Shown here: piece by piece, positions 21,464 to 51,663 of the stretch
Layout of the letters: each line of letters opens with the position of its first letter
Numbering within the stretch: position 1 is the stretch's first letter
Source: a virus
Reading direction: 5' to 3' (one strand)
IMG/VR virus record: IMGVR_UViG_3300045988_097328
DNA: 51,663 bases
Translations under genes and position numbers: made by a program
Notes under the pieces: model-generated
What the model saw: only the letters and a program-made list of their open reading frames with translations
Told to the model about the DNA's origin: nothing
The model's database searches: none

Positions 21464-21715
21464 ATGAGCCGCGAAGTCGTATGGACAAAAGCGGTTGTAG
21501 ATGCTTTTGTGGATGAAGCCTGTTTGTCCGAGGAAGAAGAACTGATTATCAGGTCGAGGGCGAAGGGCTGGACACGCACAAAGCAATCAATGCAGTACAA
21601 TATGAGCATTCGCAAGATTGACTATATTATACATACGCTGAAAAACAAGTACGACGAAGCGCAGAAATACTCCGAGATTTTACCCAAGCGGAATACAAAG
21701 AAAGCCGGGACGTAA
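21464..21715 (+). CDS. small HTH protein (sigma region-4/LuxR-like)
   Basis: 83 aa; LSEEEELIIRSRAKGWTRTKQSMQYNMSIRKIDYIIHTL. Confidence 0.45.
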   Translation: MSREVVWTKAVVDAFVDEACLSEEEELIIRSRAKGWTRTKQSMQYNMSIRKIDYIIHTLKNKYDEAQKYSEILPKRNTKKAGT

Positions 21716-21731
21716 TGTCCCGGTCTTTTTT
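21704..21731 (+). terminator. rho-independent terminator ending the late operon
   Basis: GCCGGGAC-gtaat-GTCCCGGT followed by CTTTTTTG. Confidence 0.85.
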
Positions 21732-21751
21732 GTGTTCTATTCGATTTTGTA

Positions 21752-21780
21752 TTGACAAAACAGGTTGACGATGGTATAAT
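21752..21780 (+). promoter_or_regulatory. perfect sigma-70 promoter TTGACA-N17-TATAAT
   Basis: TTGACA 21752-21757, TATAAT 21775-21780; palindrome CAATCGttCGATTG at the predicted start site. Confidence 0.75.
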
Positions 21781-21786
21781 ACAATC

Positions 21787-21885
21787 GTTCGATTGCAAAT
21801 GCGGTCGTGGATTAAAAAGCTAAGATGAGCATTTCTGTGCTCAACGGGGGAAGGCATCGGCAGTAGTCGATGCCTTTTTCTTTTT
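21787..21885 (+). ncRNA. candidate small RNA of about 100 nt (promoter-to-terminator unit with no ORF)
   Basis: between the promoter at 21752 and terminator GGCATCG-gcagtagt-CGATGCC plus TTTTTCTTTTT (21853-21885); antisense to the 3' end of the minus gene 21841-22197. Confidence 0.5.
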
Positions 21886-22197
21886 CCGGCATTTCTGGAT
21901 TCGTTTAGCGTTTTCGCTGTACGGGGCAAGGCAATATCCGCCTTTTGTATATGGAAGATGGGAAAGGATGGTATCCGGCGTTACACCAAATTTCCGCGCT
22001 GCATCTTCAAGGCTGTCCCCTGCGGCAATGGCGGCAGCTATGGCGGCATCGTAATCGCTCAAAATGCCGTTGTCGATGAGGATGCGCCGCACACGGTATT
22101 CGGACAAGCCCAATTCGCGGGCAACCTGCTTTCTGGAATGCGTCTGGTTGTACAAGCCGATGACGCAAGCAATGTCTTTCTGAGTAAGTGGCTGCAA
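21841..22197 (-). CDS. DNA-binding protein with two HTH-like segments
   Basis: 118 aa; SRKQVARELGLSEYRVRRIL and LEDAARKFGVTPDTILSHL. Confidence 0.55.
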   Translation of the reverse strand: MQPLTQKDIACVIGLYNQTHSRKQVARELGLSEYRVRRILIDNGILSDYDAAIAAAIAAGDSLEDAARKFGVTPDTILSHLPYTKGGYCLAPYSENAKRIQKCRKKKKASTTADAFPR

Positions 22198-22212
22198 ATT
22201 GATTTTTCTCCT

Positions 22213-22644
22213 TTACGCAAGAAATATTTTCTCGTTTGTCCTTTTTTCTTCGGCTTCAAGGTCGATTGGACAGACTTTCTGCAAAGTTCCACCGGGAGAC
22301 AGACGAAGACCATCGAAGCGGATGCGCCCGGAGAACAGCCCTGCGACCGTCTCCTTTTGCGCTTCTGTCGCCGTGTAGGTTTCCGGCGTTTCCGCCGTGT
22401 GCAAATAGTTGTTTGCGTAGCCGCTCCAATTCCACGAGCGGAACACAATTTCGCCGGATTTGCAAATAGCAATTTCGAGCGTCAGCGGAATGCCCGCCGT
22501 CTCCCACGGTGCAATCCTACAAATAAGAGAATCGGGCGGGTCGTCGTCCCTTTGGCGGTCAAGGTCGATAACATACTCGTCGCCGGGGAAATAATAATCC
22601 TTGTCAACCAGATAGGTTTTGTCTTTCTTGATGCTAATTTTCAT
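22213..22644 (-). CDS. hypothetical protein (143 aa)
   Basis: AAAGGAG 7 nt before ATG 22644 (internal to track ORF 22213-22758). Confidence 0.55.
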   Translation of the reverse strand: MKISIKKDKTYLVDKDYYFPGDEYVIDLDRQRDDDPPDSLICRIAPWETAGIPLTLEIAICKSGEIVFRSWNWSGYANNYLHTAETPETYTATEAQKETVAGLFSGRIRFDGLRLSPGGTLQKVCPIDLEAEEKRTNEKIFLA

Positions 22645-22806
22645 TTTTTTGCTCCTTTTGCTCATTTGATTGTTTCGATGCTTTCCATTCGTCCATATAG
22701 CGAGCATAATTCTATCTTGTTCTCGGTTGCAACACACTGCGTAATACCGGTTTTTCACCTTTCCTGCCGGGGTTATACCGCCCCGCCCGGTATCGTCTCG
22801 TTGCCG

Positions 22807-23088
22807 TTAGTCGCCGATGATGGTCAGCATCCGCGTGTGGTGACTGCCGTTTGCAACCCAGCGCAAAGCTGGCTTGTCGTTGACGGAGGTCAGCACCTCA
22901 GACAGCAGATAATCTTGACCATCAAGGTTGAGGATGGGTTCGTCCACGACGTTTGCACCGGAAACGTTAGGGATGATGACACGGACGGTATCGCAGATGT
23001 TGGTAGCTTGGGCGAGGGTGTAGACGGTTTGCTTTTCGTGGGCAAGCAGCCCGTAGTTTGCGTAGATGGTCATCTCAACATTCTTCAT
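22807..23088 (-). CDS. hypothetical protein (93 aa), first gene of cassette A
   Basis: start fixed by the conserved leader ...GAAAGAGGTAAGAATT-ATG. Confidence 0.6.
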   Translation of the reverse strand: MKNVEMTIYANYGLLAHEKQTVYTLAQATNICDTVRVIIPNVSGANVVDEPILNLDGQDYLLSEVLTSVNDKPALRWVANGSHHTRMLTIIGD

Positions 23089-23174
23089 AATTCTTACCTC
23101 TTTCTGTCGGGTGCTTTTATTTTGTACCGCCCCTTGACATAATTTATTATAGCACAAGTTGCACAACTTGTCAA
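23089..23174 (-). promoter_or_regulatory. promoter-leader cassette A: TTGACA-N17-TATAAT with spacer palindrome and conserved 5' leader
   Basis: -35 at 23169-23174, -10 at 23146-23151 (minus strand); ACAAGTTG-CA-CAACTTGT at 23154-23171; leader GTCAAGGGGCGGTACAAAATAAAAGCACCCGACAGAAAGAGGTAA. Confidence 0.8.
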
Positions 23175-23181
23175 CACTTTT

Positions 23182-23355
23182 TCAAGATTTTTCGCAAGTT
23201 TTTTGCGTTCTTTCCGAAAGCCACTGCGATAGGGCAAGGCGGACAACCGCCGAATCACTTAGCCCAATTCGCTGCCCAATCGCCTTAATTTGCTCATTCT
23301 GCTCGTGCGTCACAATGACGTTCTTAACAATCCGATTTCCATCTTTTTTTAACAT
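23182..23355 (-). CDS. ribbon-helix-helix (CopG/Arc-like) DNA-binding protein, last gene of cassette B operon
   Basis: 57 aa from ATG 23355 (GGAGG 6 nt upstream); VIVTHEQNEQIKAIGQRIGLSDSAVVRLAL. Confidence 0.6.
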   Translation of the reverse strand: MLKKDGNRIVKNVIVTHEQNEQIKAIGQRIGLSDSAVVRLALSQWLSERTQKTCEKS

Positions 23356-23368
23356 TTTCATCCTCCTA

Positions 23369-23449
23369 TCAGTTAAGCAGATTATCAATTGCCATTGCGC
23401 GCGCTACGATTGGCGCAATGTCAACGCTGACGCGCCCTGCGTTCTTCAT
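23369..23449 (-). CDS. micro-ORF (26 aa) with a strong RBS
   Basis: AAAGGAG 7 nt before ATG 23449; MKNAGRVSVDIAPIVARAMAIDNLLN; stop 23369-23371. Confidence 0.3.
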   Translation of the reverse strand: MKNAGRVSVDIAPIVARAMAIDNLLN

Positions 23450-23481
23450 TGTGCTGCTCCTTTCATCGCCTAAAATGATTT

Positions 23482-23532
23482 CGCCGCGTTGCGGCGGCGG
23501 ATTTTTGTGCGGTCCGCCGCCGCAACGCGGCG
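23482..23532 (-). terminator. 20-bp perfect hairpin immediately after the stop of gene 23535-24173
   Basis: CGCCGCGTTGCGGCGGCGGA / TCCGCCGCCGCAACGCGGCG with an 11-nt loop; only a moderate U tract on the minus strand. Confidence 0.5.
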
Positions 23533-23534
23533 GG

Positions 23535-24173
23535 TCAGGCTTCCTTGCGCTGGTAGAGCTTAAAACTACGTCCCCGCGCCTTGATTTCGTAGCATTCCAG
23601 CTCCGTCGCTGGAATCAGGGACGAAAGCGTAACCTTATTCAGGCGGCTGACGCTTTGAACCTCATCAAGGCGGCACGTTTTCATGCGCGGCTGGTTGCGC
23701 AGCCAGCGAATGACGCCAACTTTTGCGCACGCGGGAAGTTCACGGCGGCGACTGACCTGCCGCATCTGCTGCCGCTTTTGCCGCTTCTCTTGTGCAGCCT
23801 TTGCCGTCGCTTCGTCGCCGAACACCCGTGCCCCGTACAGGGAATGCTTGTCAACAGGATAGAAGCAGGTTTCCTTGATGGTTTCAAATGTGCAGTTGTT
23901 GATGATTTCGCGCTCCACGGAGTCTTTTGCGCGCGGGAGTGAGCGCTGACCTACGCTCAGAACATAGAACTCATAGCGCTCACGTTTCGTGGTGTAAATC
24001 CGCACGCGCAAAAGGTCATTTTCTTTGCGCAAATCAACGCAGGCAATTTCTCCGGAGTATTGCCTGCCGCAGAGGTCGCTCCGGCTTCCAGTGTTGATTT
24101 GGTAGCCATGCGAAAGGAACTCCGCGACCGTCTCCGTAAAGGCGCGGTCGATGTCCTGCTGCTTGTAAATCAT
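23535..24173 (-). CDS. hypothetical protein (212 aa)
   Basis: GGAGG 6 nt before ATG 24173 (internal to track ORF 23535-24311). Confidence 0.6.
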   Translation of the reverse strand: MIYKQQDIDRAFTETVAEFLSHGYQINTGSRSDLCGRQYSGEIACVDLRKENDLLRVRIYTTKRERYEFYVLSVGQRSLPRAKDSVEREIINNCTFETIKETCFYPVDKHSLYGARVFGDEATAKAAQEKRQKRQQMRQVSRRRELPACAKVGVIRWLRNQPRMKTCRLDEVQSVSRLNKVTLSSLIPATELECYEIKARGRSFKLYQRKEA

Positions 24174-24235
24174 ATAATCCTCCATTCTGCCGGGCGTGCC
24201 CGGACTTGATTTACAAACCATGCGCCGAACTTGTC

Positions 24236-24712
24236 TTAGCGGGCTGTAAGCGTATCGATGATGTCCCTCGCCTCGGTGGCGGTTGAGACGACATAGGCAG
24301 CATATAGCCACTTATACGGAAACTTGTCAAGGTTTTGGCGAATAAATTCCGCTATGGTCACACCTGCTTTTTCCGCCGCCGCCGCAATCGCGGCTTGCTT
24401 GTCGGGGTCGTCGCGGGTAGCGATAGCATCCGCGACTGTCTTTTCGTGCTGCGCAACAAATTTCGCACGCAGGTCTGTTGCGTATTCGACTTGTTTTTCG
24501 CTCACGCCGTGAATGGTCGGAAGGCTTAATGCCGCCGCCGCTTCGCGCTGCTGCTTGCGCTGCTGCTTGCGGTAGCAGTCGGCGCAAAGAAGGGGATGAG
24601 CTTCCGCCCATTCCTTTTTGCTGTCCGCGTCCCGGCGATTGAAGCCGTCAATGCGGCGTTCAACGGTAGCGCCGCAATCAGGGCATTTGTAGGTGGCAAT
24701 TGCTTTTGCCAT
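24236..24712 (-). CDS. zinc-ribbon protein (158 aa), first gene of cassette B
   Basis: start set by the conserved leader; CPDCG...CADC. Confidence 0.6.
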   Translation of the reverse strand: MAKAIATYKCPDCGATVERRIDGFNRRDADSKKEWAEAHPLLCADCYRKQQRKQQREAAAALSLPTIHGVSEKQVEYATDLRAKFVAQHEKTVADAIATRDDPDKQAAIAAAAEKAGVTIAEFIRQNLDKFPYKWLYAAYVVSTATEARDIIDTLTAR

Positions 24713-24797
24713 GGTCATTACCTCTTTCCGTCCGGGGCTCTGTTTTGTACCGCCCCTTGACACTATGTATTATATCACAGGTTGCACAACTTGTCAA
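24713..24797 (-). promoter_or_regulatory. promoter-leader cassette B: TTGACA-N17-TATAAT with spacer palindrome and conserved leader
   Basis: -35 at 24792-24797, -10 at 24769-24774 (minus strand); ACAGGTTG-CA-CAACTTGT at 24777-24794. Confidence 0.8.
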
Positions 24798-24903
24798 CAC
24801 TTTTCCAGGATTTTTCGCAAGTTTTTTTGCAACTTTCTCGCGTTTTGTTTGCACTCCACAACCGTCCGAATCGCCTATACTATAATCAGTAGGAGGTGGT
24901 GCG

Positions 24904-25281
24904 GTGTATATCCACTACAACCCTAATCCGCGCGGCTTGCGCGTCGGAGATTGCGCTGTCCGCGCAGCATCCAAGGCAGCAGGAGAGACGTGGGGAAGCA
25001 CCTATGCAGCGCTCTGTGCGCTGGGCTATGACTGCGGAGATATGCCAAACGCCAACCACGTTTGGGGACGGTACTTGCATGAGCGCGGATTCTCGCGCCA
25101 CGCCCTGCCGGATACTTGTCCAATCTGCTATACTGTCGCGGATTTCTGCCGTGACCATCCGCGCGGTGTCTACGTCCTCGGTATCGGCGACCACGTTGTG
25201 TGCTCCATTGATGGCGATTGGTACGACGCATGGGACAGCGGCGCGGAAATACCAGCGTACTATTGGGAGAGGGAGGATTGA
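24904..25281 (+). CDS. hypothetical protein with a possible Cys/His (papain-like?) motif pair
   Basis: AGGAGGTGG then GTG 24904; YNPNPRGLRVGDCAVRA...GDHVVCSIDGDWYDAWD. Confidence 0.55.
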   Translation: MYIHYNPNPRGLRVGDCAVRAASKAAGETWGSTYAALCALGYDCGDMPNANHVWGRYLHERGFSRHALPDTCPICYTVADFCRDHPRGVYVLGIGDHVVCSIDGDWYDAWDSGAEIPAYYWERED

Positions 25282-25284
25282 TGT

Positions 25285-25725
25285 ATGGCGTATGGTTATC
25301 CACAATATTATCCACAGATTCCGTACTATAACGCGCAGCAGACGGCAATGCCAGACCAACTTGCGCAACTTCGAGCCGCACAGCAGCCGATGATGCAGCA
25401 GCCAGCGCAGCCATCAAGCAACGGACTGATTTGGGTGCAGGGTGAAGCCGGGGCGAAGAGCTACCTTGTCGCCAACGGTTCGAGCGTGCTGCTGATGGAC
25501 AGCGAGAAACAGACGTTTTACATCAAGTCAGCGGACGCGGCAGGAATGCCGTCTATGCGCACGTTTGACTACACGGAGCGAAACGCATCCGTAAAGCCAT
25601 CCAGCAGCGCGCAGGACGCGCCGGAGTATGTAACGCGGGAAGAACTTAACACACTGACGAAACGCCTTGAAGCGCTGGAAGGGCGCAAGAAGAAGGGGGT
25701 AACGCAGGATGAACCCACTGTTTAA
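25285..25725 (+). CDS. hypothetical protein with a Q/P/Y-rich N-terminus
   Basis: 146 aa; MAYGYPQYYPQIPYYNAQQ... Confidence 0.55.
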   Translation: MAYGYPQYYPQIPYYNAQQTAMPDQLAQLRAAQQPMMQQPAQPSSNGLIWVQGEAGAKSYLVANGSSVLLMDSEKQTFYIKSADAAGMPSMRTFDYTERNASVKPSSSAQDAPEYVTREELNTLTKRLEALEGRKKKGVTQDEPTV

Positions 25726-25927
25726 TGCACTTGGCGGCGGGCAGATGCCCGGAGCGCTGGGAAATTTTCAGCAGATGATGCAGCAGTTTCAGCAGTTCCG
25801 CGCGACGTTTCAAGGCGACCCGGAGCAGGAGGTGCGCAAGCTGATTGCATCCGGCAAAATCTCGCAAAGCCAGCTTAACCAGCTGCAACAGGCGGCGCAA
25901 ATGTTTCAATCGTTCCTCGGTTCTTAA
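25709..25927 (+). CDS. hypothetical Q-rich small protein
   Basis: 72 aa; NFQQMMQQFQQFRATFQGDPEQEV. Confidence 0.5.
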   Translation: MNPLFNALGGGQMPGALGNFQQMMQQFQQFRATFQGDPEQEVRKLIASGKISQSQLNQLQQAAQMFQSFLGS

Positions 25928-25991
25928 CTTTGGCTATATTTGTTGCGCAACAATTTAGCATATACTTCAAAATTCCGAAAGGAGAAAAAAA

Positions 25992-26744
25992 ATGAGCATG
26001 ACTTCGGAACTCTCCGCGTCTGACGTGGCTCTGCTTTCCGGGCGGAACAGCAACCAGAACGGCGACGGCTTCTTCGGTGGCAATGGCGCATACTGGATTA
26101 TCATCCTTTTCCTCTTCGTCTTCTGCGGGTGGGGCAATAATGGATGGGGTGGCTTTGGCAATCGCAACGGTGGACAGGGTTCTGTCATGGACGGTTACGT
26201 CCTCACCTCCGACTTCGCCAATATCGAGCGAAAAATCGACAACGTGAACAGCGGCTTGTGTGATGGATTCTACGCACAGGCACAGCTCACAAACGGCGTA
26301 CAGATGCAGATGGCTAACGGCTTCGCTCAGGCAGAACTCTCTCGCGCCAATCAGCAGACCGCGCTGATGCAGCAGCTTAACGCGATGCAGGCACAGGCGG
26401 CGGATTGCTGCTGCAAAACGCAGACGGCGATTCAGGGCGTGAACTACAACCTTGCCACTCAGGCTTGCGACACTCGCAACACCATTCAGAGCGGCGTTCG
26501 CGACATTTTGGACAACGCCAACGCTAACGCCCGAGCGGTGATTGACGCACTGACGGCACAGCGCATCGAGGCGAAGGACGAGAAGATTGCGGCGCAGAAT
26601 CAGCAGATTTTCGGCTTGCAGCTCGCCGCGTCTCAGGCAGCACAGAACCAGTATCTTGTGAATACGATTCGTCCTTGCCCTGTTCCGGCGTACACGGTAG
26701 CCAATCCGTTCTGCTGCAATCAGGCGCAGTATTGCGCTGGTTAA
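25992..26744 (+). CDS. membrane-anchored Gly-rich / coiled-coil / Cys-cluster protein
   Basis: 250 aa; TM segment AYWIIILFLFVFCGWG, GWGGFGNRNGG, DCCCKTQ, C-terminal PCPVPAY...PFCCNQAQYCAG. Confidence 0.6.
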   Translation: MSMTSELSASDVALLSGRNSNQNGDGFFGGNGAYWIIILFLFVFCGWGNNGWGGFGNRNGGQGSVMDGYVLTSDFANIERKIDNVNSGLCDGFYAQAQLTNGVQMQMANGFAQAELSRANQQTALMQQLNAMQAQAADCCCKTQTAIQGVNYNLATQACDTRNTIQSGVRDILDNANANARAVIDALTAQRIEAKDEKIAAQNQQIFGLQLAASQAAQNQYLVNTIRPCPVPAYTVANPFCCNQAQYCAG

Positions 26745-26848
26745 GCTCCAAACAGCTTCCTGCCTGTGCAGGATGAGCCGATAACGGCAACTGAAAAAGC
26801 GGCGGGGCGTTGATTGATTCGCGCCCTGCCGCTGAAAGGAGAAAAATC

Positions 26849-27274
26849 ATGGCTGAATATACTGCGGCGGCGGCGCAAACCGTCGCCAATGGCAACAACG
26901 TCCTTTTTACTGCAACGCCCGTCTGCGCCACGCGGTGCATCGTCCATCGTGAGGGGTCTGGAATCGTAACGCTGCGGGGCATCACCAACGGACAGTGCCG
27001 CGCGCGTTTTCGCGTAAACTTTGGCGGCAATATCGCCATTCCGACGGGCGGCACTGCTGGTGCTATCTCTGTTGCGCTTGCAATCGCAGGGGAGGCGCTT
27101 CCGGCTTCTACCGCCATCGTCACCCCTGCTGCGGCGGCGCAGTACCAGAACGTCAGCATTGATACCTTTGTTGATGTTCCGGCGGGGTGCTGCACGACCA
27201 TCAGCGTCAAAAATACCGCTGGCGTGGATATTGACGTGCAGAACGCCAACCTGATTGTCACGCGGGTTGCGTGA
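26849..27274 (+). CDS. TNF/C1q-like (BclA C-terminal-domain-like) beta-jelly-roll protein candidate
   Basis: GAAAGGAG RBS, ATG 26849; 141 aa, Ala/Gly/Thr-rich beta pattern; family assignment from memory only. Confidence 0.4.
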   Translation: MAEYTAAAAQTVANGNNVLFTATPVCATRCIVHREGSGIVTLRGITNGQCRARFRVNFGGNIAIPTGGTAGAISVALAIAGEALPASTAIVTPAAAAQYQNVSIDTFVDVPAGCCTTISVKNTAGVDIDVQNANLIVTRVA

Positions 27275-27290
27275 GGAAAGGAGAAACGCA

Positions 27291-27668
27291 ATGAAATATC
27301 TTCACGAACTTAAAGAAAAACTCTGCGAAGAGCTGCAAGAGATTGCGGAAAAGCAGGATATGTCGGCGGGCGACCTCGAAGCCGTTCACAAGCTGACAGA
27401 CACCATCAAAAATATCGACAAGATTGAGATGCTGGAAGCGGACGGGTATAGCAATAACGGCGGCGACTGGGAAGCGCGCGGAAGCTATGACGGTATGTAT
27501 CGCGATGACCGATACAGCCGCCGTGGGCGCGATATGCGCGGACGGTACAGCCGCCACGACGGCACGGACAAGCGCCTGATGGACGAGTTGGAAGAGCTGA
27601 TGCGCACCATCGAGCCGGGGAAGCGTGACGTGATTCGGCGGGCGCTTGAAGAACTAAAAGAAGCATAA
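27291..27668 (+). CDS. hypothetical helical protein with an R/D/Y-rich centre
   Basis: GAAAGGAG RBS, ATG 27291; 125 aa. Confidence 0.55.
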   Translation: MKYLHELKEKLCEELQEIAEKQDMSAGDLEAVHKLTDTIKNIDKIEMLEADGYSNNGGDWEARGSYDGMYRDDRYSRRGRDMRGRYSRHDGTDKRLMDELEELMRTIEPGKRDVIRRALEELKEA

Positions 27669-27686
27669 CGGAAAGGGGCTGGCTGC

Positions 27687-28049
27687 GTGGTTACGCTGAC
27701 GTGGATTGATGGGCAGATTGAGAAGGCAATCGAAGAAGGCAACAATCCGCAGAACATCCGCGATTTGGCGGCGCTGATTACAGTGCGTGAGTACCTCGTC
27801 ACGCGGTCAGCCCCGAAAGCCGATGCACAGAGTGTGCAGGAATCCGCCGATGACAAGAAGCGCCGGGATGCGGTTGTCCTCATGACGCATAGCGCGGACT
27901 TGGACACCGTACCGACAATCCAGCAAGTGGAGACAGCGCTGCAATCCATCAGCGTCAACACGCCGGAGGAACGAAAGCGTGTACAGGATGCGAAGAAGTG
28001 GGCGCAGATTATCTCGCAGAAAACGCTTGACAAAAAATCCCCTCCATGA
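27687..28049 (+). CDS. hypothetical protein (120 aa)
   Basis: GTG start; last gene before the terminator. Confidence 0.5.
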   Translation: MVTLTWIDGQIEKAIEEGNNPQNIRDLAALITVREYLVTRSAPKADAQSVQESADDKKRRDAVVLMTHSADLDTVPTIQQVETALQSISVNTPEERKRVQDAKKWAQIISQKTLDKKSPP

Positions 28050-28071
28050 ATGCAACACGGAGGGGATTTTT
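28034..28071 (+). terminator. rho-independent terminator
   Basis: AAAATCCCCTCC-13 nt-GGAGGGGATTTT followed by T. Confidence 0.8.
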
Positions 28072-28281
28072 GACCCCCGTTTTGACTACTTTGCACGACG
28101 GAAAGAGGGTCAAAATTGCGAATCTGGGGATTTCGTATTTCGGATGATTGTGCTACAATCAAGCATTATCAATGGATTGCAGCGGGTGCAAAAATGCAGT
28201 CATAAAAACATCAGTTCCTTTTTGAGGAGAATTAAAAAATCCGCAATCAGTTGAAAGCACAAGGTTTCTGTGCTGTGCGCA

Positions 28282-29352
28282 TCAATTTTGACTACCATTT
28301 TGACTACTTGCCCTCCTCGCAAGCACATTTTCCACTTTCTTAACAGCGCTTTCCTCCTTCTTTGCTGTGAGGTGTGCGTAAATCCTCATTATCATTTCCT
28401 CGTTTGCGTGCCCCATCCATTTTACAGCAGTTTTAATGTCAACGTCCGCATCATATAGCATTGTTGCGAACGTATGTCTACAATCGTGCTGACGTATCGC
28501 AACTTTCTTCCGCGCAACCGATGACAAAAAGCTCAAATATCTGCGCCATTCCACATCCACGTCGTTTATTGACATTTTTTTGCCATCTTTTGGCGTAAAA
28601 ATATTACCGTGCTTGCCTGTTAGTGCCTTCCTCAGTGGCAGGAACAGGGGAACATCACGGATTCCTGCTTTTGTTTTTGGCTGGACGATAACACACGAGG
28701 AATGTTCGGCGCGCAGAGAGTGCCGAACGTGAATTACGCCATTTTCAAAATCAACGTCCTTGTCAATGTCGAGTGCAAGCGCTTCACCACGCCGCAACCC
28801 TGCATAGAGCATCACCATAGCAAACAGTCCCATCGGATTTTCTTTGTATGTATCTTCGATTATCTGCACTTCCCAATCTTCAAGGTTGCGGTGCGTTCCA
28901 ACTTCGCCTTTCGCCGGCTTGATGTTTTCGCATGGATTTTTTGTTACAATTCCATCACCTAACGCGGCGCGGAAAACCGCTCGTACCGTCATTGCTACTT
29001 TTTTTCGTGTCGCATCCCCACGATTAGCAAAAGCGTTATATAGCCGTTGTATGTCCGACGGCGTAATTAGTCGCATCTCAACTTTTGGCAAGATTGACGC
29101 TATCTTGTTAAGCCTTGCCACATAGTCATCATACACTTTCGCCGTCACCTCGCTCTTGTACGTCGGCAGCCACTCCGCCGCGTACTCCGCGAACGTGTAC
29201 TTTTCCCGTGGTTTCCTGCCGTATTTTTCCTGCTTCTTGTACTCTTCGCGGGCTGCAAGGGCTTCGGACTGCGTTCGCCCGTAGAAGGAAAACCCCTTAT
29301 ATTTACAAACGTAACGCCCATCTGGGCGCTTTTTTAGTGTCTGGCGTGGCAA
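28282..29352 (-). CDS. int: tyrosine recombinase / phage integrase
   Basis: LRRGEALAL (R), HDCRHTF (HxxR), GHANEEMIMRIYAHL (H..Y); start chosen at TTG 29352 (AAAGGAG 8 nt upstream); in-frame ATGs at 29403 and 29460 are alternatives. Confidence 0.85.
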   Translation of the reverse strand: MPRQTLKKRPDGRYVCKYKGFSFYGRTQSEALAAREEYKKQEKYGRKPREKYTFAEYAAEWLPTYKSEVTAKVYDDYVARLNKIASILPKVEMRLITPSDIQRLYNAFANRGDATRKKVAMTVRAVFRAALGDGIVTKNPCENIKPAKGEVGTHRNLEDWEVQIIEDTYKENPMGLFAMVMLYAGLRRGEALALDIDKDVDFENGVIHVRHSLRAEHSSCVIVQPKTKAGIRDVPLFLPLRKALTGKHGNIFTPKDGKKMSINDVDVEWRRYLSFLSSVARKKVAIRQHDCRHTFATMLYDADVDIKTAVKWMGHANEEMIMRIYAHLTAKKEESAVKKVENVLARRASSQNGSQN

Positions 29353-29528
29353 GTATATCACTCCTTTTCTCTCATTGTGCCGCAAAACGCAGCAAAGTGC
29401 CATCGTAAATTGTGAACAAATTGAAAACATTTCGCAAACGCACGGGAAATTTTTAGTCATATTCCGCGGCGCGTCAGCATATGGTATTGCGGTTGACGGT
29501 AAAAAAATACGCGACTGGAGAGGAAAAT

Positions 29529-30780: not shown

Positions 30781-30809
30781 TTGACAAGCGGGGCAATCTG
30801 GCATATAAT
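30781..30809 (+). promoter_or_regulatory. perfect sigma-70 promoter with no downstream ORF
   Basis: TTGACA 30781-30786, N17, TATAAT 30804-30809; points into the antisense of the decayed repressor gene. Confidence 0.7.
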
Positions 30810-32296: not shown

Positions 32297-32325
32297 TTGA
32301 CGTGAAGAATAATTCGTGCTATAAT
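32297..32325 (+). promoter_or_regulatory. near-consensus promoter TTGACG-N17-TATAAT
   Basis: direct repeats TGAAGAATA at 32303 and 32331 flank the -10. Confidence 0.7.
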
Positions 32326-33896: not shown

Positions 33897-33925
33897 TTGA
33901 CAGCAAGGTGACGGCACTATATAAT
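33897..33925 (+). promoter_or_regulatory. perfect sigma-70 promoter with direct-repeat operators
   Basis: TTGACA 33897-33902, N17, TATAAT 33920-33925; GGTGACGGCAC at 33907-33917 and 33934-33944. Confidence 0.75.
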
Positions 33926-34929: not shown

Positions 34930-34958
34930 TTGACATTCACGCAAAGTGAATGTATAAT
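34930..34958 (+). promoter_or_regulatory. perfect sigma-70 promoter with a spacer palindrome (early rightward promoter)
   Basis: TTGACA 34930-34935, N17, TATAAT 34953-34958; CATTCAC-gcaaa-GTGAATG at 34934-34952. Confidence 0.8.
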
Positions 34959-44860: not shown

Positions 44861-45128
44861 CAAAAACCGGGTACTGACACTTGCGGAATTGGCAATCAGC
44901 GCAGAAACGCTCGTATGGATTGAAGATAACAACGGGGACGACGAGCCGTGCGTCCGTGCGCGAATGTTAACGTACTGGGAACCTAAAAGCCATCGCATAT
45001 ATTTCGACGGCGGACGCACATGGTACGCCGATTATACATACGGCGAGACGTGGCGCTGCTGGTTGAGGAATCCGACGGAGCAGCAGATGAGGGACACGCC
45101 GTGGGAGGAAAGCAAAAATGAAGTATGA
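44850..45128 (+). CDS. WRCW-domain protein (paralogue 4)
   Basis: GGGAGGA RBS; NRVLTLAELA...TWRCWLRNPTEQQMRDTPWEE. Confidence 0.6.
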   Translation: MKDNKNRVLTLAELAISAETLVWIEDNNGDDEPCVRARMLTYWEPKSHRIYFDGGRTWYADYTYGETWRCWLRNPTEQQMRDTPWEESKNEV

Positions 45129-45897
45129 GTTCACTGGCGAAGTGAAATACATCGGCCGTAAGATATTGCATCGAATCCGCGCAGTGCGAGACATCCCGGA
45201 ATACGAGATTAAAAGCGGCGACATGGGAGGATGGCTCGAAACAGAGAAAAATCTTTCACATAACGGCTCAGCGTGGGTGACGGATTCTGCGGTGGTGATG
45301 GACGCGGCGTTCGTGACGGGAGATGCGCGTGTGATGGATTCTGCGTTGGTGATGGGAAATGCGCGTGTGATGGGCGCGGCGCGGGTGATGGACGAGGCGT
45401 TCGTGACGGGAGATGCGCGTGTGACGGATTCTGCGCGGGTGACGGGTTTGTCGCTGGTGGCTGGAAATGCGTTGGTGATGGAAAATGCGCGTGTGATGGA
45501 TTCTGCGCGGGTGACGGGTTTGCCGCTGGTGGCTGGAAATGCGTTGGTGATGGAAAATGCGCGTGTAATGGGCGTGGCGCGGGTGACGGGCGCAGCGTGC
45601 GTAAGGGGCGCAGCGTGCGTAAGGGGCGCAGCGTGGGTGACGGGAAATGCGCATATAATGAACTCGGCTGATTACATCACCATCAATACAATCAAAAACT
45701 GTGACGATACAACCACCTTTTATCGCGGCGCAGATGGGGGAATATATGTCGCCTGCGGACGCTTCAGCGGCTCAATTGACGACTTCGCCGCAAAAGTCAA
45801 GCAAGTCCATGCCGGGACAAAGCACGAAAGGACGTACCTGTTGGCAATCGAACTGGCAAAGGCGCAGATTGCGACGGAGGAGGAAAATGATGGCTGA
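45118..45897 (+). CDS. beta-helix-like repeat protein (hexapeptide/bactofilin-like A-R-V-x-G/D periodicity)
   Basis: 259 aa; GDARVMDSALVMGNARVMGAARVMDEAFVTGDARV... Confidence 0.6.
   Translation: MKYEFTGEVKYIGRKILHRIRAVRDIPEYEIKSGDMGGWLETEKNLSHNGSAWVTDSAVVMDAAFVTGDARVMDSALVMGNARVMGAARVMDEAFVTGDARVTDSARVTGLSLVAGNALVMENARVMDSARVTGLPLVAGNALVMENARVMGVARVTGAACVRGAACVRGAAWVTGNAHIMNSADYITINTIKNCDDTTTFYRGADGGIYVACGRFSGSIDDFAAKVKQVHAGTKHERTYLLAIELAKAQIATEEENDG
45415..45558 (+). repeat. two tandem 72-nt (24-codon) units inside the repeat-protein gene
   Basis: 45415-45486 versus 45487-45558 differ at about 3 positions; additional 18-nt repeats at 45589-45640. Confidence 0.85.
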
Positions 45898-48073: not shown

Positions 48074-48160
48074 TTGACATATACGACAGTATATGTTATA
48101 ATAATTAGTGTCAAGGGGGCGGTACAAAATAAAGCACCCAGACAGAAAGAGGTAACGATT
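48074..48160 (+). promoter_or_regulatory. promoter-leader cassette C: TTGACA-N17-TATAAT with spacer palindrome and conserved leader
   Basis: TTGACA 48074-48079, TATAAT 48097-48102; ACATATAC-gaca-GTATATGT at 48077-48096; leader GTCAAGGGGGCGGTACAAAATAAAGCACCCAGACAGAAAGAGGTAA. Confidence 0.8.
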
Positions 48161-48547
48161 ATGGGCTTTTTGAATAATATGTTTGGCGACTTGGGCATCC
48201 ATCGCATTTCTAATAACTACTTCTCGATGAGCCATATAAACGAGGACGGGACGAAAATCATTGTCCGTGTCGATAGGGGACAGGTGTTCAAGACAAAGTA
48301 CGGTTACGGATTGATTCTCGACCAAAATCATGTTCAGTTTTTGAAGTCATGGGCGGTCAACGATAACTGGTACGGAATGTATATCATGCTGGATAAGCAG
48401 TATTTTACCCCGAAAGAATGGGGTGAGTTCGAGGACTATCCGGTAGAAAAAGAAAATCTTGACTTTGAAACATGGGTAAAAACTGCAAAAGAACAGGAGA
48501 ATATGGCAAAGAAAGACCGCATAAATTTTCAAGTTTACTGGCGTTAA
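48161..48547 (+). CDS. hypothetical protein (128 aa), first gene of cassette C
   Basis: start set by the conserved leader. Confidence 0.6.
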   Translation: MGFLNNMFGDLGIHRISNNYFSMSHINEDGTKIIVRVDRGQVFKTKYGYGLILDQNHVQFLKSWAVNDNWYGMYIMLDKQYFTPKEWGEFEDYPVEKENLDFETWVKTAKEQENMAKKDRINFQVYWR

Positions 48548-48574
48548 GTAAAAGAAATGGGAGGAGTAAAGCAT

Positions 48575-49399
48575 ATGATTGATACCCAAAAGGCGCGAAA
48601 AGCACTGACGGAAAATGAAACAACCGTCATAAATTACCTAAACAAGCACGGCATTGATGGCGAATTGACCGTGCAGACCTGCACACGGACGAAGTTCACC
48701 ATTCGGCGCAGCGACGGCGAAGAAATCACGTTCAACCTTCCTGCGCGTCTCTATCGCGCTGGTTATCCAAACATCAATTCTTATCTCGCGACAGTCCGAG
48801 ACCTCATCCAGCCGCCGAAGAGGCGCGAGCCAAACGAAGTTTCCGAGGAAGAAATCGCGCGATACATGCCGGGAAAATGGTCGCCGGACTACATTGCCGC
48901 TATTATCGCCTATGTTAAGCGAGTAAAAAAAGTCGGTATGATACTGTACATCGTGTCGGAGTACGACATCGAGGCGCAGTCATGTTTTCGCGGTTCTCAT
49001 GAAGACTTACTTCGCCTCGACAAATTCGACGGCTACGACCGTGCAGAAGAAAGTGGGCATCCTCTGCTGGTTACGGAGGACAAGGAAAAGGCAGAAAAAC
49101 TTTTTGCCGGAAAAACATCAGGCTTCTACGGGCACGGAGGAATCGCATATAAGCATGGATTCTTTTACGGCGAATATCAAGTCAATGCGCCGGAAGATGA
49201 AGATGACACCATGCCGGAAATCGAATGTGTTGGTTCGTCGGACGCGCCAGTTGAAATCAACGTGTACCGCCGCGACAATGACGCGGATTGGGATGAAGAG
49301 GGCGAAGTCGTTGCAACCTTCTCCACCTACGCGGAAGCCTTCGCAGAACGCGATTTGTCCGCAACCTGTGACAGGGACAGCGAATACTACGTCCAATAA
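48575..49399 (+). CDS. hypothetical acidic protein (274 aa)
   Basis: GGGAGGAG 8 nt before ATG 48575. Confidence 0.6.
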   Translation: MIDTQKARKALTENETTVINYLNKHGIDGELTVQTCTRTKFTIRRSDGEEITFNLPARLYRAGYPNINSYLATVRDLIQPPKRREPNEVSEEEIARYMPGKWSPDYIAAIIAYVKRVKKVGMILYIVSEYDIEAQSCFRGSHEDLLRLDKFDGYDRAEESGHPLLVTEDKEKAEKLFAGKTSGFYGHGGIAYKHGFFYGEYQVNAPEDEDDTMPEIECVGSSDAPVEINVYRRDNDADWDEEGEVVATFSTYAEAFAERDLSATCDRDSEYYVQ

Positions 49400-49413
49400 G
49401 AAGAGGATACAAA

Positions 49414-49632
49414 ATGCGTAAAGAGTATTACCAAGGCGACGTGTCAGTCCGAGCGATGCGGAAGTATCGCGAAAAAGAAGGAATCAAGACGGTGCGCTTC
49501 GACGTTCGCGCTGGGAGCAAAGAGGCGCTGGAAGAAGAAGCAAAGCGCCGTGGTCTTTCGGTGGCGCAGCTAATCGTTGATTCCGTAAACGCCTATGTCG
49601 GGCGTGAGATAATTGCAAACAAAAAACAATAA
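49414..49632 (+). CDS. ribbon-helix-helix-like DNA-binding protein, last gene of cassette C
   Basis: 72 aa; VRFDVRAGSKEALEEEAKRRGLSVAQLIVDSVNAYV. Confidence 0.5.
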   Translation: MRKEYYQGDVSVRAMRKYREKEGIKTVRFDVRAGSKEALEEEAKRRGLSVAQLIVDSVNAYVGREIIANKKQ

Positions 49633-49667: not shown

Positions 49668-49726
49668 CGTTGCGAAAAAAGTTTGCAAAAATCGCAGAAA
49701 AAATGTGATTTACCCCTTGACATATA

Positions 49727-49803
49727 CGGCAGTATATGCTATAATAATAGTGTCAGGAGGGCGGTACAAAAAATAAAGCCCCCGACAGAAAGAGGTAATG
49801 ATT
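49727..49803 (+). promoter_or_regulatory. promoter-leader cassette D: TTGACA-N17-TATAAT with spacer palindrome and conserved leader
   Basis: TTGACA 49727-49732, TATAAT 49750-49755; ACATATAC-ggca-GTATATGC; leader GTCAGGAGGGCGGTACAAAAAATAAAGCCCCCGACAGAAAGAGGTAA. Confidence 0.8.
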
Positions 49804-50007
49804 ATGAAGACCATCAAGCTGAGCACCAAGGCGCTGGAAACCCTCAACCGCATCGGTGACTATCCCACCCGAAATTGGATTTACGTCCGTGATTATTATA
49901 CTGGCAAGTACAAGCGCATCTCGAAAGCAGTGTTTGATGACCCGGCGACGGTTTGCTTTAAGATGCAGACCGAGTGGGAATACATCAAAGTCAAAGCGAT
50001 AAAGTAA
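49804..50007 (+). CDS. hypothetical protein (67 aa), cassette D
   Basis: start set by the conserved leader. Confidence 0.55.
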   Translation: MKTIKLSTKALETLNRIGDYPTRNWIYVRDYYTGKYKRISKAVFDDPATVCFKMQTEWEYIKVKAIK

Positions 50008-50079: not shown

Positions 50080-50374
50080 AATTATGAGCAAAAACAAGCA
50101 AGCCGTTAGAACGCGAAATAGGCGGCATTTCTGGCAATGACAAAGAAACAAAAACATATAGAAATAAAAAAATGAGAGTTATGAGAGTAATTTCCGTGCT
50201 ATAATGTAAAATGTAAAAGCAGCAAAAAAGACGTGAGCAGTGATGCAAGCGCCTTTTTTGTTGGAAGAGGCGACTATGGAAGTGCCGCTCTTACCTCTTC
50301 GGCGGCGGGAGTTATGCGCGAGTGCGCTTTGTTGCGTTGGTGGGGACGCGACGGAAGAAGAGGAGGGAAAACCA

Positions 50375-51663
50375 TTGCTTGAATGGAACGGCATCAAAAT
50401 CGTCGAAACGGATTGTATGCTGCCGGTTGACCGCGTAAAACCCTACGCGAGAAACGCAAAGCGGCATCCGCAGGAGCAAATCGACGAAATCAAGGCAAGC
50501 ATCAAGCGGTTCGGCATGGACGACCCCATCGGCATCTGGGGCAAGGAAAACCTGATTGTCGAGGGTCACGGGCGGCTGGAAGCGTGCAAGCAGCTCGGCA
50601 TCCCGACAGTGCCGTGCATCAGGCTCGACCACCTTACGAAGGAAGAGCGCAAGGCGTACACTCTGGCGCACAACAAAACCAACATGGACAGCGGCTGGGA
50701 CTTTACGGCGCTTGACCAAGAGCTGGCGGAAATCGTTAATATTGACATGAGCGAATTCGGCTTCGGAGCCTCCCTTCCTGAAGAAGAAATCTGGCAAGCA
50801 AACGAAAACAGCATATCATTGACTGACAAATATACATTCGCGCCATTTTCTGTCCTTGATGGCAGGAGTGGAGAATGGCAGAAACGGAAAAATCAATGGC
50901 ATTCCGTTATTGGCGACAGCAGGGAAGGACGAGCTGATTCGCTAATTGGCAGTCTCGGTTCTCTTGCAAAGGCGCAAGGGCATAAATACAGCGGGACAAG
51001 TGAGTTTGACCCGGTTCTCTGCGAGATTTTGGTAAAATGGTTCTGCCCCCCCAATGGGAAAATCGTTGACCCGTTTGCTGGCGGAAACGTTCGCGGCGTA
51101 ATTTCCGCAATCCTCGGCAACGAGTATCACGGAGTAGATATTCGCCCGGAGCAGATTGCAGAAAATGAATCGTCTCTACAAAAAATCCGTGCAGATTACG
51201 CACAAGCGCCGAAGTGGCATTGCGGCGACAGCGCGAATATTGACGCGATGCTCGAAAAAGAAGCACCGTTTGATTTTTTGTTGATGTGTCCGCCGTATGG
51301 AGACTTAGAAAAGTACAGCGACAATCCAAAAGACCTATCAACGATGAAGTACGAGGATTTCATCGCTGCGTATAGAGACATAATCGAAAAGACGGCAGCG
51401 CTTCTTTCGGAAAACGCGTTTTGCGCCGTAGTTGTATCCGACATACGCGACAGAAAGGGAATGTATCGCGGATTCACTTCTGAAACAATCAAGGCATTTG
51501 CAGACTGCAACGTAAAACTATATAACGATATGGTAAAACTAGACACGACTTGCGGGGCTGCTGTTCGCGTCGAAAAACAATTCCGCGATATGCGCAAAGT
51601 CGTGCGTGTCCATCAAAACGTTCTTGTTTTCGTAAAGGGCGACCCTCGTAAAATCAAAAAAGG
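50375..51663 (+). CDS. ParB-like nuclease domain fused to a SAM-dependent DNA methyltransferase (continues at 1-180; 449 aa from TTG 50375)
   Basis: ORF absent from the track because it runs off the window; GAGGAGGG 7 nt before TTG 50375 (in-frame ATG at 50276 is an alternative); ParB box KPYARNAKRHP...LIVEGHGRLEA; motif I VDPFAGGNVRG; motif IV LLMCPPYGD. Confidence 0.8.
   Translation, partial: MLEWNGIKIVETDCMLPVDRVKPYARNAKRHPQEQIDEIKASIKRFGMDDPIGIWGKENLIVEGHGRLEACKQLGIPTVPCIRLDHLTKEERKAYTLAHNKTNMDSGWDFTALDQELAEIVNIDMSEFGFGASLPEEEIWQANENSISLTDKYTFAPFSVLDGRSGEWQKRKNQWHSVIGDSREGRADSLIGSLGSLAKAQGHKYSGTSEFDPVLCEILVKWFCPPNGKIVDPFAGGNVRGVISAILGNEYHGVDIRPEQIAENESSLQKIRADYAQAPKWHCGDSANIDAMLEKEAPFDFLLMCPPYGDLEKYSDNPKDLSTMKYEDFIAAYRDIIEKTAALLSENAFCAVVVSDIRDRKGMYRGFTSETIKAFADCNVKLYNDMVKLDTTCGAAVRVEKQFRDMRKVVRVHQNVLVFVKGDPRKIKK
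51545..51663. repeat. second copy of the terminal direct repeat
   Basis: identical to 1-119. Confidence 0.95.

Follow-up and report, generated by a model that had tools for sequence, protein, structure and literature searches.

The locus considered here raises two questions: which factor controls a pair of accessory operons transcribed against the late genes of a phage genome, and which function can be attributed to the small proteins encoded in them. The operons, designated B and A, are located on the minus strand of the IMG/VR virus record IMGVR_UViG_3300045988_097328, which was analyzed at its full length of 51,663 nucleotides (hereafter, the window). In a preliminary description made from the letters alone, they had been likened to anti-CRISPR (Acr) loci with their Acr-associated (Aca) regulators: a strong promoter is followed by small proteins of no recognisable family and, at the end, by a small DNA-binding protein, of the ribbon-helix-helix (RHH) type in operon B and of the double helix-turn-helix (HTH) type in operon A. 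Results obtained in this study suggest that both operons belong to one small regulon under the 57-amino-acid (aa) RHH protein encoded at the end of operon B (RHH1). This regulatory logic is considered highly probable on comparative grounds, and a counter-defence role of the encoded cargo is put somewhat short of an even chance.

Promoters, Operators and Expression Cassettes of Operons B and A

The two minus-strand operons with very strong promoters were found as previously described. Promoters B and A both match the consensus at 12 of 12 positions and carry an extended -10 element (Table 1). In total, ten such perfect promoters are present in 51.6 kb, where approximately 0.006 would be expected (2 x 51,663 x 4^-12). 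Both spacers also contain the same 18-bp palindrome reported before, perfect in promoter A and with one mismatch in promoter B, which extends from the ACA of the -35 hexamer to the TG of the extended -10 element. A search allowing up to three mismatches returned no other site of this palindrome in the window (0.07 expected; none of 100 shuffled sequences reached the count), and the immunity region of the phage is free of it. The stop codon of the RHH1 gene is separated from the -35 hexamer of promoter A by 7 nt instead of the 8 nt given earlier.

Promoters and operators are parts of an expression cassette of approximately 110-140 nt comprising an A-rich upstream part, the promoter, the operator, a conserved hairpin in the 5' untranslated region (5'UTR) and a strong ribosome-binding site. 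From the A-rich part to the start codon, cassettes A and B constitute a direct repeat (85 nt at 92% identity; 110-139 nt at 85-89%). Two further copies, C and D, were identified on the plus strand, where the layout is repeated: the operon headed by cassette C ends in the gene for a second RHH protein (RHH2), downstream of which a terminator, cassette D and the gene for a 67-aa protein are located. Operators of these cassettes are of a different class (ACATATAC-N4-GTATATG), and within the window this palindrome was detected at promoters C and D only. Each RHH type of the window is paired with two promoters in cassettes that are 85-92% identical, and the same pattern was observed in relatives, which suggests that each RHH protein controls both of its promoters.

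All four cassettes of the window share the 5'UTR TGTCA..GGGCGGTACAAAA..GCCCC.GACAGAAAGAGGTAA..ATG, whose stem-loop immediately follows the expected start of transcription (-9 to -16 kcal/mol, z-scores of -1.2 to -2.9). Applying a stricter UTR pattern, the sequence was found to be conserved in 99 cassettes representing 45 distinct UTRs. For the whole window, no Rfam family reached its gathering threshold; for positions 21600-25000 there was sub-threshold noise only, and the 5'UTR stem-loop was assigned to no family. As four different operators and RHH types are combined with one and the same hairpin, a function as a general mRNA stabiliser or translation element, or as the target of a common factor, appears more likely.

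Covariation of RHH Proteins and Operator Classes

An 18-base UTR pattern was used to scan IMG/VR, yielding 83 loci and, including the four copies of the window, 121 cassettes sharing the 5'UTR. Related loci compared with the window are referred to by names of the form L0xx or L1xx. The spacers of these cassettes fall into four operator classes, namely P1 (ACAAGTTGyrCAACTTGT), to which the operators of operons B and A belong, P4 (ACAAGGTATATAyCTTGT), P2, which is the class of cassettes C and D, and P3 (CATATTGCCGGGAATATG). The outer five bases are common to P1 and P4 and likewise to P2 and P3, and the inner eight differ within each pair. Moreover, the last gene of every operon that is closed by a following cassette encodes a small RHH-like protein. 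In the one apparent exception, L028, a gap of 311 nt is present at a place where the simple caller of open reading frames (ORFs) probably missed the RHH gene.

The predicted N-terminal strand of these RHH proteins follows the operator class. P1 operators were accompanied by the strand KNVIVTH in 13 of 13 cases and P4 operators by KCII[LV]T[KR] in four of four; the corresponding strands are KTVRFDVR for P2 (16/18) and KITIEVQ for P3 (5/6). Even the operon's own promoter, at a distance of approximately 0.6-2.1 kb, agrees with the RHH gene in this way in at least 20 different cargo layouts, and linkage alone is therefore not enough to account for the match. Furthermore, a natural chimera was found in L014 and L025, in which an RHH protein 81% identical to RHH1 combines the RHH1 C-terminus with the strand KCIIVTR and is flanked by P4 operators both upstream and downstream. 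RHH2 and RHH3 also show their greatest difference in residues 24-32, the predicted strand. Comparative rather than biochemical evidence thus points to the N-terminal beta-strand as the carrier of DNA specificity.

Based on these findings, RHH1 is the likely autorepressor of promoters B and A. The role of terminal regulator of operon A, assigned to the double-HTH protein in the preliminary description, was rejected for that protein, as both promoters carry the RHH-linked operator and the HTH gene is missing in most P1-class relatives; in P4-class operons it occupies the second position, which characterizes it as internal, dispensable cargo. The proposed architecture of a strong promoter, small unfamiliar proteins and a small autoregulatory DNA-binding protein is nevertheless supported for the RHH protein by the covariation of strand and operator, by the chimera and by the likeness of its layout to known systems.

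The RHH fold of RHH1 is likely but not proven. Its sequence displays a GLS turn and an alternating strand, and depositors named members of its cluster 'repressor' or 'TraY domain' (one member of the RHH2 cluster was named 'ParG ribbon-helix-helix'). RHH2 showed a weak match to the PHROG 'Arc-like repressor' (E = 0.009), and the joint profile of RHH2 and RHH3 matched the antitoxin VapB26 in the PDB in the right register, though below the threshold (E = 0.033). Profile-profile comparison of both RHH groups gave the same register with a weak score (E = 0.007, probability 5.5%), by which common ancestry is not shown.

Cargo Exchange between Conserved Flanks

The proteins flanking the locus, p83 on the lysis side and isl125 as the first island protein, are 95-100% identical across the approximately 25 relatives compared, and the content between them differs. 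Given as protein lengths in aa, the first and second operons contain 160, 437, RHH and 138, 239, ~200; or 160, RHH and 93, 143, HTH; or 216, 145, 437, RHH and 99, 272, 197; or 165, 88, 169, RHH4 and 192, HTH, 87. Yet another arrangement was observed in L110.

Mapping at base level showed that the window corresponds to the backbone of L098 with an insertion of 716 nt (24210->23494), relative to both L098 and L016, which brings the 212-aa gene and one arm of a 20-bp perfect hairpin; the other arm is native. In the 26-aa micro-ORF preceding the RHH1 gene, the initial 20 codons of a 437-aa gene found in most relatives are joined to its final 6 by a 1.2-kb in-frame deletion (L016 6255->7486); the ribosome-binding site of that gene and its stop/start junction with the RHH gene are retained. 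Accordingly, the locus is a cargo-exchange hotspot between conserved flanks, for which the cassettes probably supply the homology. The 20-bp hairpin was flagged as terminator-like on both strands and is possibly a partial terminator or a 3' stabiliser located ahead of the RHH1 gene. It is conceivable, though speculative, that it lowers the output of RHH1 relative to the cargo and hence prolongs the expression burst discussed below.

Proteins Encoded by the Operons and by Sister Cassettes

All ORFs listed in the preliminary description are present, the Zn-ribbon protein comprising 160 aa, or 158 aa when counted from the second ATG. The absence of recognisable families among the cargo was also confirmed: comparison with Pfam, PHROGs of assigned function, NCBIfam, PADLOC and, for four cargo proteins, PDB sequences gave no functional match, and no annotated anti-CRISPR or anti-restriction family of PHROGs or Pfam was matched by the proteins of either operon. 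Among the 5027 PADLOC models, nine of the ten proteins scanned had no family at E <= 0.01; the sole match, of the HTH region of the 118-aa protein to mad1, is marginal (E = 0.0099, 14.2 bits). Structure prediction, proposed earlier as a way to classify these proteins, was carried out for two of them, and neither model matches a solved fold. The AlphaFold model of the 143-aa protein is confident (predicted local distance difference test, pLDDT, 89.7; predicted template modelling score, pTM, 0.85) and that of the 212-aa protein is fair (pLDDT 80). At E <= 0.001, Foldseek retrieved nothing from the PDB for either model, nor from BFVD for the 143-aa model; the best PDB match of the 212-aa model had E = 0.16 and a template modelling score of 0.25.

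The genomic context of homologues provides some further hints. At this site, most relatives have the Zn-ribbon gene at the head of the first operon (family F4, with 12 P1, three P4 and one P2 operons). With E < 1e-3, its family extends to 577 clusters (50% identity), which are nearly all stand-alone proteins of approximately 150-165 aa, and a PDB profile search with it yielded C2H2-type zinc-finger noise only. Homologues of the 143-aa protein are encoded among small early genes of other phages; a 212-aa ORF located near one of them in L106 was rejected as a relative of the 212-aa protein of the window. Distant homologues of the latter protein (34-37% identity by tblastn) are encoded directly after an Amidoligase_2 gene. 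The corresponding cluster in L100-L105 (e.g., L103 3583-6724) consists of Amidoligase_2, the 212-like gene, small genes and then a gene for a protein with a GATase-like N-terminus (MCIIC..., read from sequence only) or for a GGACT/AIG2 protein, and it is divergent from ParB-methyltransferase-terminase genes. A 70-aa neighbour recurs beside 212-like genes in L112. In another lineage, moreover, an array of small genes beside an integrase gene encodes a DUF3560 protein along with close relatives of both the 212-aa protein and the Zn-ribbon protein.

The commonest cargo of sister cassettes in relatives is an ArdC-N domain protein (Pfam, 26.8 bits at a cut-off of 22.6; PHROG match 'anti-restriction protein' at 1e-6). 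Other sister cargo includes a protein with a DNPPF motif, a C5-type methyltransferase-like protein, both recognised by sequence motifs only, DUF3560 proteins and a protein with a weak PAPS-reductase-like match. In many relatives, a second P2 cassette directly drives the ArdC-N gene together with the methyltransferase-like or PAPS-reductase-like gene. The window contains no ArdC homologue, ArdC-N being restricted to the sister cassettes of relatives, and a literature search for DUF3560 in an anti-defence context returned nothing usable.

Exact copies of the locus proteins were found on hundreds of assembled contigs, the exact 93-aa sequence on 336 of them. The locus represents an accessory hotspot of a phage lineage that is very common in the human gut, with the proteins of 160, 212, 93, 143 and 437 aa as candidates. 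Since few proteins with anti-defence or establishment functions are known in Clostridia, these candidates are worth screening for such functions there. In addition, the 18-base UTR pattern proved to be an effective search handle, as 121 cassettes and their cargo were recovered with it, and more cargo should be findable in the same way.

Genome Setting and Neighbouring Features

An exact terminal repeat of 119 nt (positions 1-119 and 51545-51663) shows the window to be circularly closed, corresponding to a genome of 51,544 bp. Its gene order is given in Table 1 together with the features of the locus. An integrated copy, L098, is contained in the metagenome-assembled genome GCA_048241625.1 of the NCBI. 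Homology between this prophage and the window stops at window position 28234, within the 3' end of a host GNAT acetyltransferase gene, and operons B and A are located 3-6 kb from this prophage end. The attachment site thus lies directly beside the integrase gene (window 28200-28282; L098 5103-5137), and on the host side of L098 the GNAT gene is followed by a 361-aa gene of no family and by yidC, yidD and rnpA. The presence of an integrase and of an integrated copy whose homology ends inside a host gene indicates that the phage is temperate. Cluster names of the GNAT neighbour (Lachnospiraceae/Clostridiales) weakly hint at gut Clostridia as hosts. Scanning of GTDB genomes with the 5'UTR pattern led to no host, as all 14 matches were chance matches at which the promoter was absent. 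When compared at the DNA level with deposited phages, the locus had no match, and the left half of the genome a single one of 89 bp.

A bidirectional terminator ends both operon A and the lysis-side transcript converging with it. A further perfect promoter (TTGACA-17-TATAAT with TG; window 21752-21886, plus strand) is aimed into the 3' end of operon A and is followed by approximately 100 nt that form three hairpins, the last of which is an intrinsic terminator (AAGGCATCG..CGATGCCTT and a T-run; minimum free energy -43.2 kcal/mol, z = -5.66). The predicted transcript would run antisense to the end of the double-HTH gene and is regarded as a small RNA candidate; no significant Rfam match was obtained for it, and the element is conserved only in L098 and L099. 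In the early region, plus-strand promoters were found at 30781, 31287, 33897 and 34930 (perfect) and at 32297 (near-perfect, 11/12). The spacer of the promoter at 34930 contains the motif CATTCAC-GCAAA-GTGAATG, and GGTGACGGCAC is present in the spacer of the promoter at 33897 and again just downstream. These motifs suggest further operator/regulator pairs.

Two other features were observed outside the locus. A tandem array with a period of 18 nt and 14 copies in register (45252-45665, plus strand) is located inside a 259-aa ORF (45118-45897), which would encode a protein of six-residue repeats. Just downstream of cassette D, a gene fusing a ParB-like N-terminal domain to a DNA methyltransferase was read from the sequence (50370-51663, continuing at position 1); relatives of this arrangement score ParB_N and N6_N4_Mtase.

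Table 1. Coordinates of operons B and A, their control elements, the sister cassettes and the surrounding gene blocks in the window.
Feature	Position	Strand	Description
Structural and lysis genes	up to ~21.7 kb	+	
Bidirectional intrinsic terminator	21705-21723	.	ends operon A and convergent lysis-side transcript; -19.2 kcal/mol, z = -6.2
Weaker hairpin	21826-21843		near end of operon A
Accessory operons B and A	between lysis genes and island	-	
Cargo 5, 118-aa double-HTH protein	21841-22197	-	TTG start; Pfam HTH_28 and HTH_23
Cargo 4, 143-aa protein	22213-22644	-	no family
Cargo 3, 93-aa protein	22807-23088	-	no family
Expression cassette A	23077-23215	-	upstream part overlaps 3' end of RHH1 gene; 5'UTR hairpin 23105-23139
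Promoter A	23174-23146 (-35 at 23174-23169, -10 at 23151-23146)	-	12/12 TTGACA-17-TATAAT, TG upstream of -10
Operator O-A, class P1	23154-23171	.	ACAAGTTGTGCAACTTGT; perfect 8-2-8 palindrome in promoter spacer
RHH1, 57 aa, predicted RHH autorepressor	23182-23355	-	strand KNVIVTH, GLS turn; covaries with operator class
26-aa micro-ORF	23369-23449	-	in-frame remnant of 437-aa gene
20-bp perfect hairpin	23482-23532 (arms 23513-23532, 23482-23501)	-	3' of 212-aa gene; -52 kcal/mol, z = -7.25
Cargo 2, 212-aa protein	23535-24173	-	on 716-nt insertion
Cargo 1, 160-aa Zn-ribbon protein	24236-24718	-	CxxC..CxxC and motif LPxIxGVSEKQxxYAxxLR; phrog_16123, function unassigned
Expression cassette B	24718-24827	-	up to start codon; repeat of cassette A
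5'UTR stem-loop of cassette B	24730-24761	-	GTC..GGGGC / GCCCC..GAC, then AAAGAGG ribosome-binding site; -15.9 kcal/mol
Promoter B	24797-24769 (-35 at 24797-24792, -10 at 24774-24769)	-	12/12 TTGACA-17-TATAAT, TG upstream of -10
Operator O-B, class P1	24777-24794	.	ACAAGTTGTGCAACCTGT; 8-2-8 palindrome with one mismatch in promoter spacer
Island of genes of no assigned function	24904-28254	+	
Tyrosine integrase	28282-29460		after island; phrog_1, E = 4e-65
Early genes, then packaging genes	3' of integrase		
Sister operon C	48074-49632	+	128-aa gene 48161-48547, 274-aa gene 48575-49399, RHH2 (72 aa) 49414-49632
Operator of cassette C, class P2	48077-48096	+	ACATATAC-GACA-GTATATGT
Sister cassette D	49717-50007	+	P2 operator 49720-49738, then 67-aa gene 49804-50007

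Proposed Mode of Action and Alternative Explanations

Based on the sequence anatomy and the comparison of relatives, the following mode of action is proposed. Operons B and A would constitute one small regulon under RHH1, each of them opening with a high-output cassette composed of A-tracts, a consensus sigma-70/sigma-A promoter with extended -10, the 5' stem-loop and a strong ribosome-binding site. Before any RHH1 is present, as on naked DNA that has just entered, host RNA polymerase would fire both promoters fully and independently of any phage factor, and a burst of cargo proteins and RHH1 would follow. RHH1 would then bind the 18-bp palindrome between the -35 hexamer and the extended -10, occlude the polymerase and close both promoters; a low autoregulated level would remain and would also hold in the lysogen. 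Furthermore, the shared cassettes would serve as portable homology, by means of which cargo is swapped, inserted and deleted between the conserved flanks. The cargo itself would most likely meet establishment or counter-defence needs immediately after DNA entry. As a whole, this explanation is regarded as fairly probable.

Several observations weigh against the proposed regulon. No RHH family was detected by a Pfam scan of RHH1, and the joint profile of RHH1 and RHH4 reached CopG (2cpg/1b01, E = 0.15) and ORF56 (E = 0.47) in the PDB in the right register, with sub-threshold scores. Binding of RHH1 to the P1 palindrome and repression at this site are deduced from sequence comparison. In the RHH2/RHH3 group, the pairing is broken by mosaic loci, L004 and L056 featuring RHH3 behind a P2 promoter and L077 featuring RHH2 behind a P3 promoter. 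These loci may reflect recombination within the shared cassette or, given the common outer half-sites of P2 and P3, cross-recognition; in L077, RHH2 is then followed by a P2 promoter. Counts of matching pairs overstate the number of independent events, because many loci are close relatives and mostly originate from one IMG dataset (3300045988). Moreover, the RHH gene physically adjoins the downstream promoter, and this part of the covariation could be due to linkage alone. Concerning the cargo, no cargo protein of the window resembles known anti-defence families in Pfam or PHROGs, the ArdC-N and methyltransferase-like proteins are encoded in other cassettes of other genomes, and the position at the prophage end fits lysogenic-conversion genes equally well.

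The latter interpretation would assign the cargo to prophage protection: under steady expression set by RHH1, the proteins would serve the lysogen and not the incoming phage, superinfection exclusion and defence against other phages being possible examples. It is in line with the homology end inside the host GNAT gene so close to the operons, with transcription opposite to the late genes and insulation by the bidirectional terminator, with host-type consensus promoters that need no phage activator and with negative autoregulation, which leads to a stable low output. However, the combination of consensus promoters with a repressor encoded at the operon end corresponds to the burst-then-shut-off design of Aca systems and Reg576 (PMC13551039, PMC6294495). 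In addition, none of the 5027 PADLOC models provided a convincing cargo match, and other copies of the cassette within the phage family drive ArdC-N-type and methyltransferase-like genes, whose functions are those of incoming DNA. A benefit to the lysogen as the main role is considered rather unlikely.

Two further explanations concern the regulator and its target. In phage P22, the RHH repressor Arc acts at an operator between the -35 and -10 elements of the very strong promoter Pant, with its specificity residing in the N-terminal strand; in the immI region of this phage, arc is the first gene, the antirepressor Ant is the cargo, a second RHH protein, Mnt, is encoded divergently, and feedback sets in after a burst. 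A module of this kind (Pant-arc-ant) would contain an antirepressor or another modulator of the lysis-lysogeny decision, the expression of which is limited by the RHH protein in the manner of Arc. The location of the operator in the spacer of a very strong promoter, within the late/accessory part of a temperate genome, and the Arc-like PHROG match of RHH2 agree with such a module. The antirepressor reading was rejected, as no Ant, KilAC or Bro-type match was found among the cargo in Pfam and PHROGs, the RHH gene is the last and not the first gene of its operon and no divergent Mnt-like RHH gene is present in the window; moreover, cargo varying between close relatives is unexpected for a core decision circuit. 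An immI-like module is consequently judged improbable. Somewhat less probable still is the explanation that a factor other than RHH1 binds the palindromes (for example the double-HTH protein, the immunity repressor of the phage or a host factor) and that RHH1 acts for instance as an antitoxin paired with the next gene. RHH proteins often function as antitoxins, among them VapB26, the top PDB match of the RHH2/3 profile, and 18-bp palindromes are bound by dimeric HTH proteins as well. Against this, the operator class follows the RHH strand even in the chimera, most P1 relatives lack the HTH gene, and the P1 palindrome does not occur in the immunity region. A toxin-antitoxin pair was rejected, since the genes beside the RHH gene differ between close relatives; the gene following it varies (93, 138, 192 or 99 aa) and is preceded by a promoter of its own, and no toxin family was matched. 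Control by RHH1, with shut-off of both operons, is the preferred explanation.

Comparison with Known Regulatory Systems

The closest counterpart in terms of layout is Aca14 of Pasteurella multocida and relatives, an RHH-type Aca regulator for which repression of its own and the adjacent downstream operon via promoter inverted repeats was demonstrated by electrophoretic mobility shift assays and reporters (PMC13551039). In both cases, a promoter with inverted repeat, cargo and an RHH gene are followed by a second promoter with inverted repeat and further cargo; the gene for the small RHH protein closes an accessory or anti-defence operon, whose cargo varies and frequently lacks annotation. In contrast, the repeat of Aca14 overlaps the -10 element, whereas the palindrome of the window fills the spacer from the -35 to the extended -10. 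Moreover, no conserved 5'UTR RNA motif was found for Aca14, whereas the cassettes of the window share a conserved 5' hairpin. Operons controlled by Aca14 hold known acr genes, none of which was matched in the window's operons using Pfam and PHROGs, and they belong to Proteobacteria, whereas the phage analyzed here appears to be of a gut Clostridia type, a host assignment that is weak.

The HTH regulators Aca1 and Aca2 act on a promoter inverted repeat and also bind conserved 5'UTR hairpins (PMC13551039). Their hairpins resemble those of the window's cassettes, being placed directly after the transcription start and ending approximately 20 nt before the start codon, with a bulge between a short, conserved lower stem and an upper one. 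However, each of these regulators has its own RNA motif, whereas one hairpin type serves four operators and RHH types in the phage family.

Plasmid p576 of Bacillus (pLS20 family) encodes Reg576, an RHH repressor of four strong promoters of its establishment regulon (EGeRS2), which includes ardC; these promoters share a conserved upstream sequence (PMC6294495, PMC8708921). Like RHH1 in the proposed model, Reg576 represses its own and several other strong sigma-A promoters, a conserved upstream sequence is reused, and expression is transiently high upon entry of naked DNA and then shut off. The cargo is also comparable, consisting mostly of proteins of no assigned function together with ardC, as ArdC-N is the commonest sister-cassette cargo in the phage family, and gene content differs between close relatives. 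Differences concern the type of element, a conjugative plasmid versus a temperate phage with integrase and integrated copy, and ardC itself, which is part of the Reg576 regulon and has no homologue in the window. The operators also differ: Reg576 recognises a direct repeat, TTATCCC, upstream of the -35 and near the ribosome-binding site with two dimers, as opposed to a single spacer palindrome in the window. The Arc operator, for its part, comprises two subsites in 21 bp (PMC6294495).

Among phages, Arc at Pant represents the classical analogue with respect to an RHH operator in the -35/-10 spacer of a very strong promoter of a temperate phage. In the window, the RHH gene is last in its operon, no Ant homologue was matched and no divergent RHH gene is present.

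The system is probably a further RHH-controlled burst-expression regulon of the Aca14 or Reg576 kind. An anti-defence role of its cargo is plausible but unproven, its support being of an indirect nature: the behaviour of the locus as a hotspot and the ArdC-N and methyltransferase-like cargo encoded in sister cassettes of relatives. Whether an abundant family of temperate gut phages runs a phage version of the plasmid 'establishment regulon' is more doubtful. This wider interpretation would comprise one swappable cassette, at least four orthogonal RHH/operator pairs, the 5'UTR hairpin as a second, post-transcriptional control, and the Zn-ribbon protein and the fold-orphan 212-, 143- and 93-aa proteins as new counter-defence effectors, with the 212-aa family maybe connected to amidoligase/GATase/GGACT peptide-modification clusters. 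The four natural RHH/operator pairs and the strand swap illustrate how RHH specificity changes and might be usable as orthogonal repressor/promoter parts. Autoregulated control of multiple operons by an RHH protein is already known from Aca14 and Reg576; what is added here are four natural specificity classes, a natural strand swap and a search handle for the cargo of gut phages.

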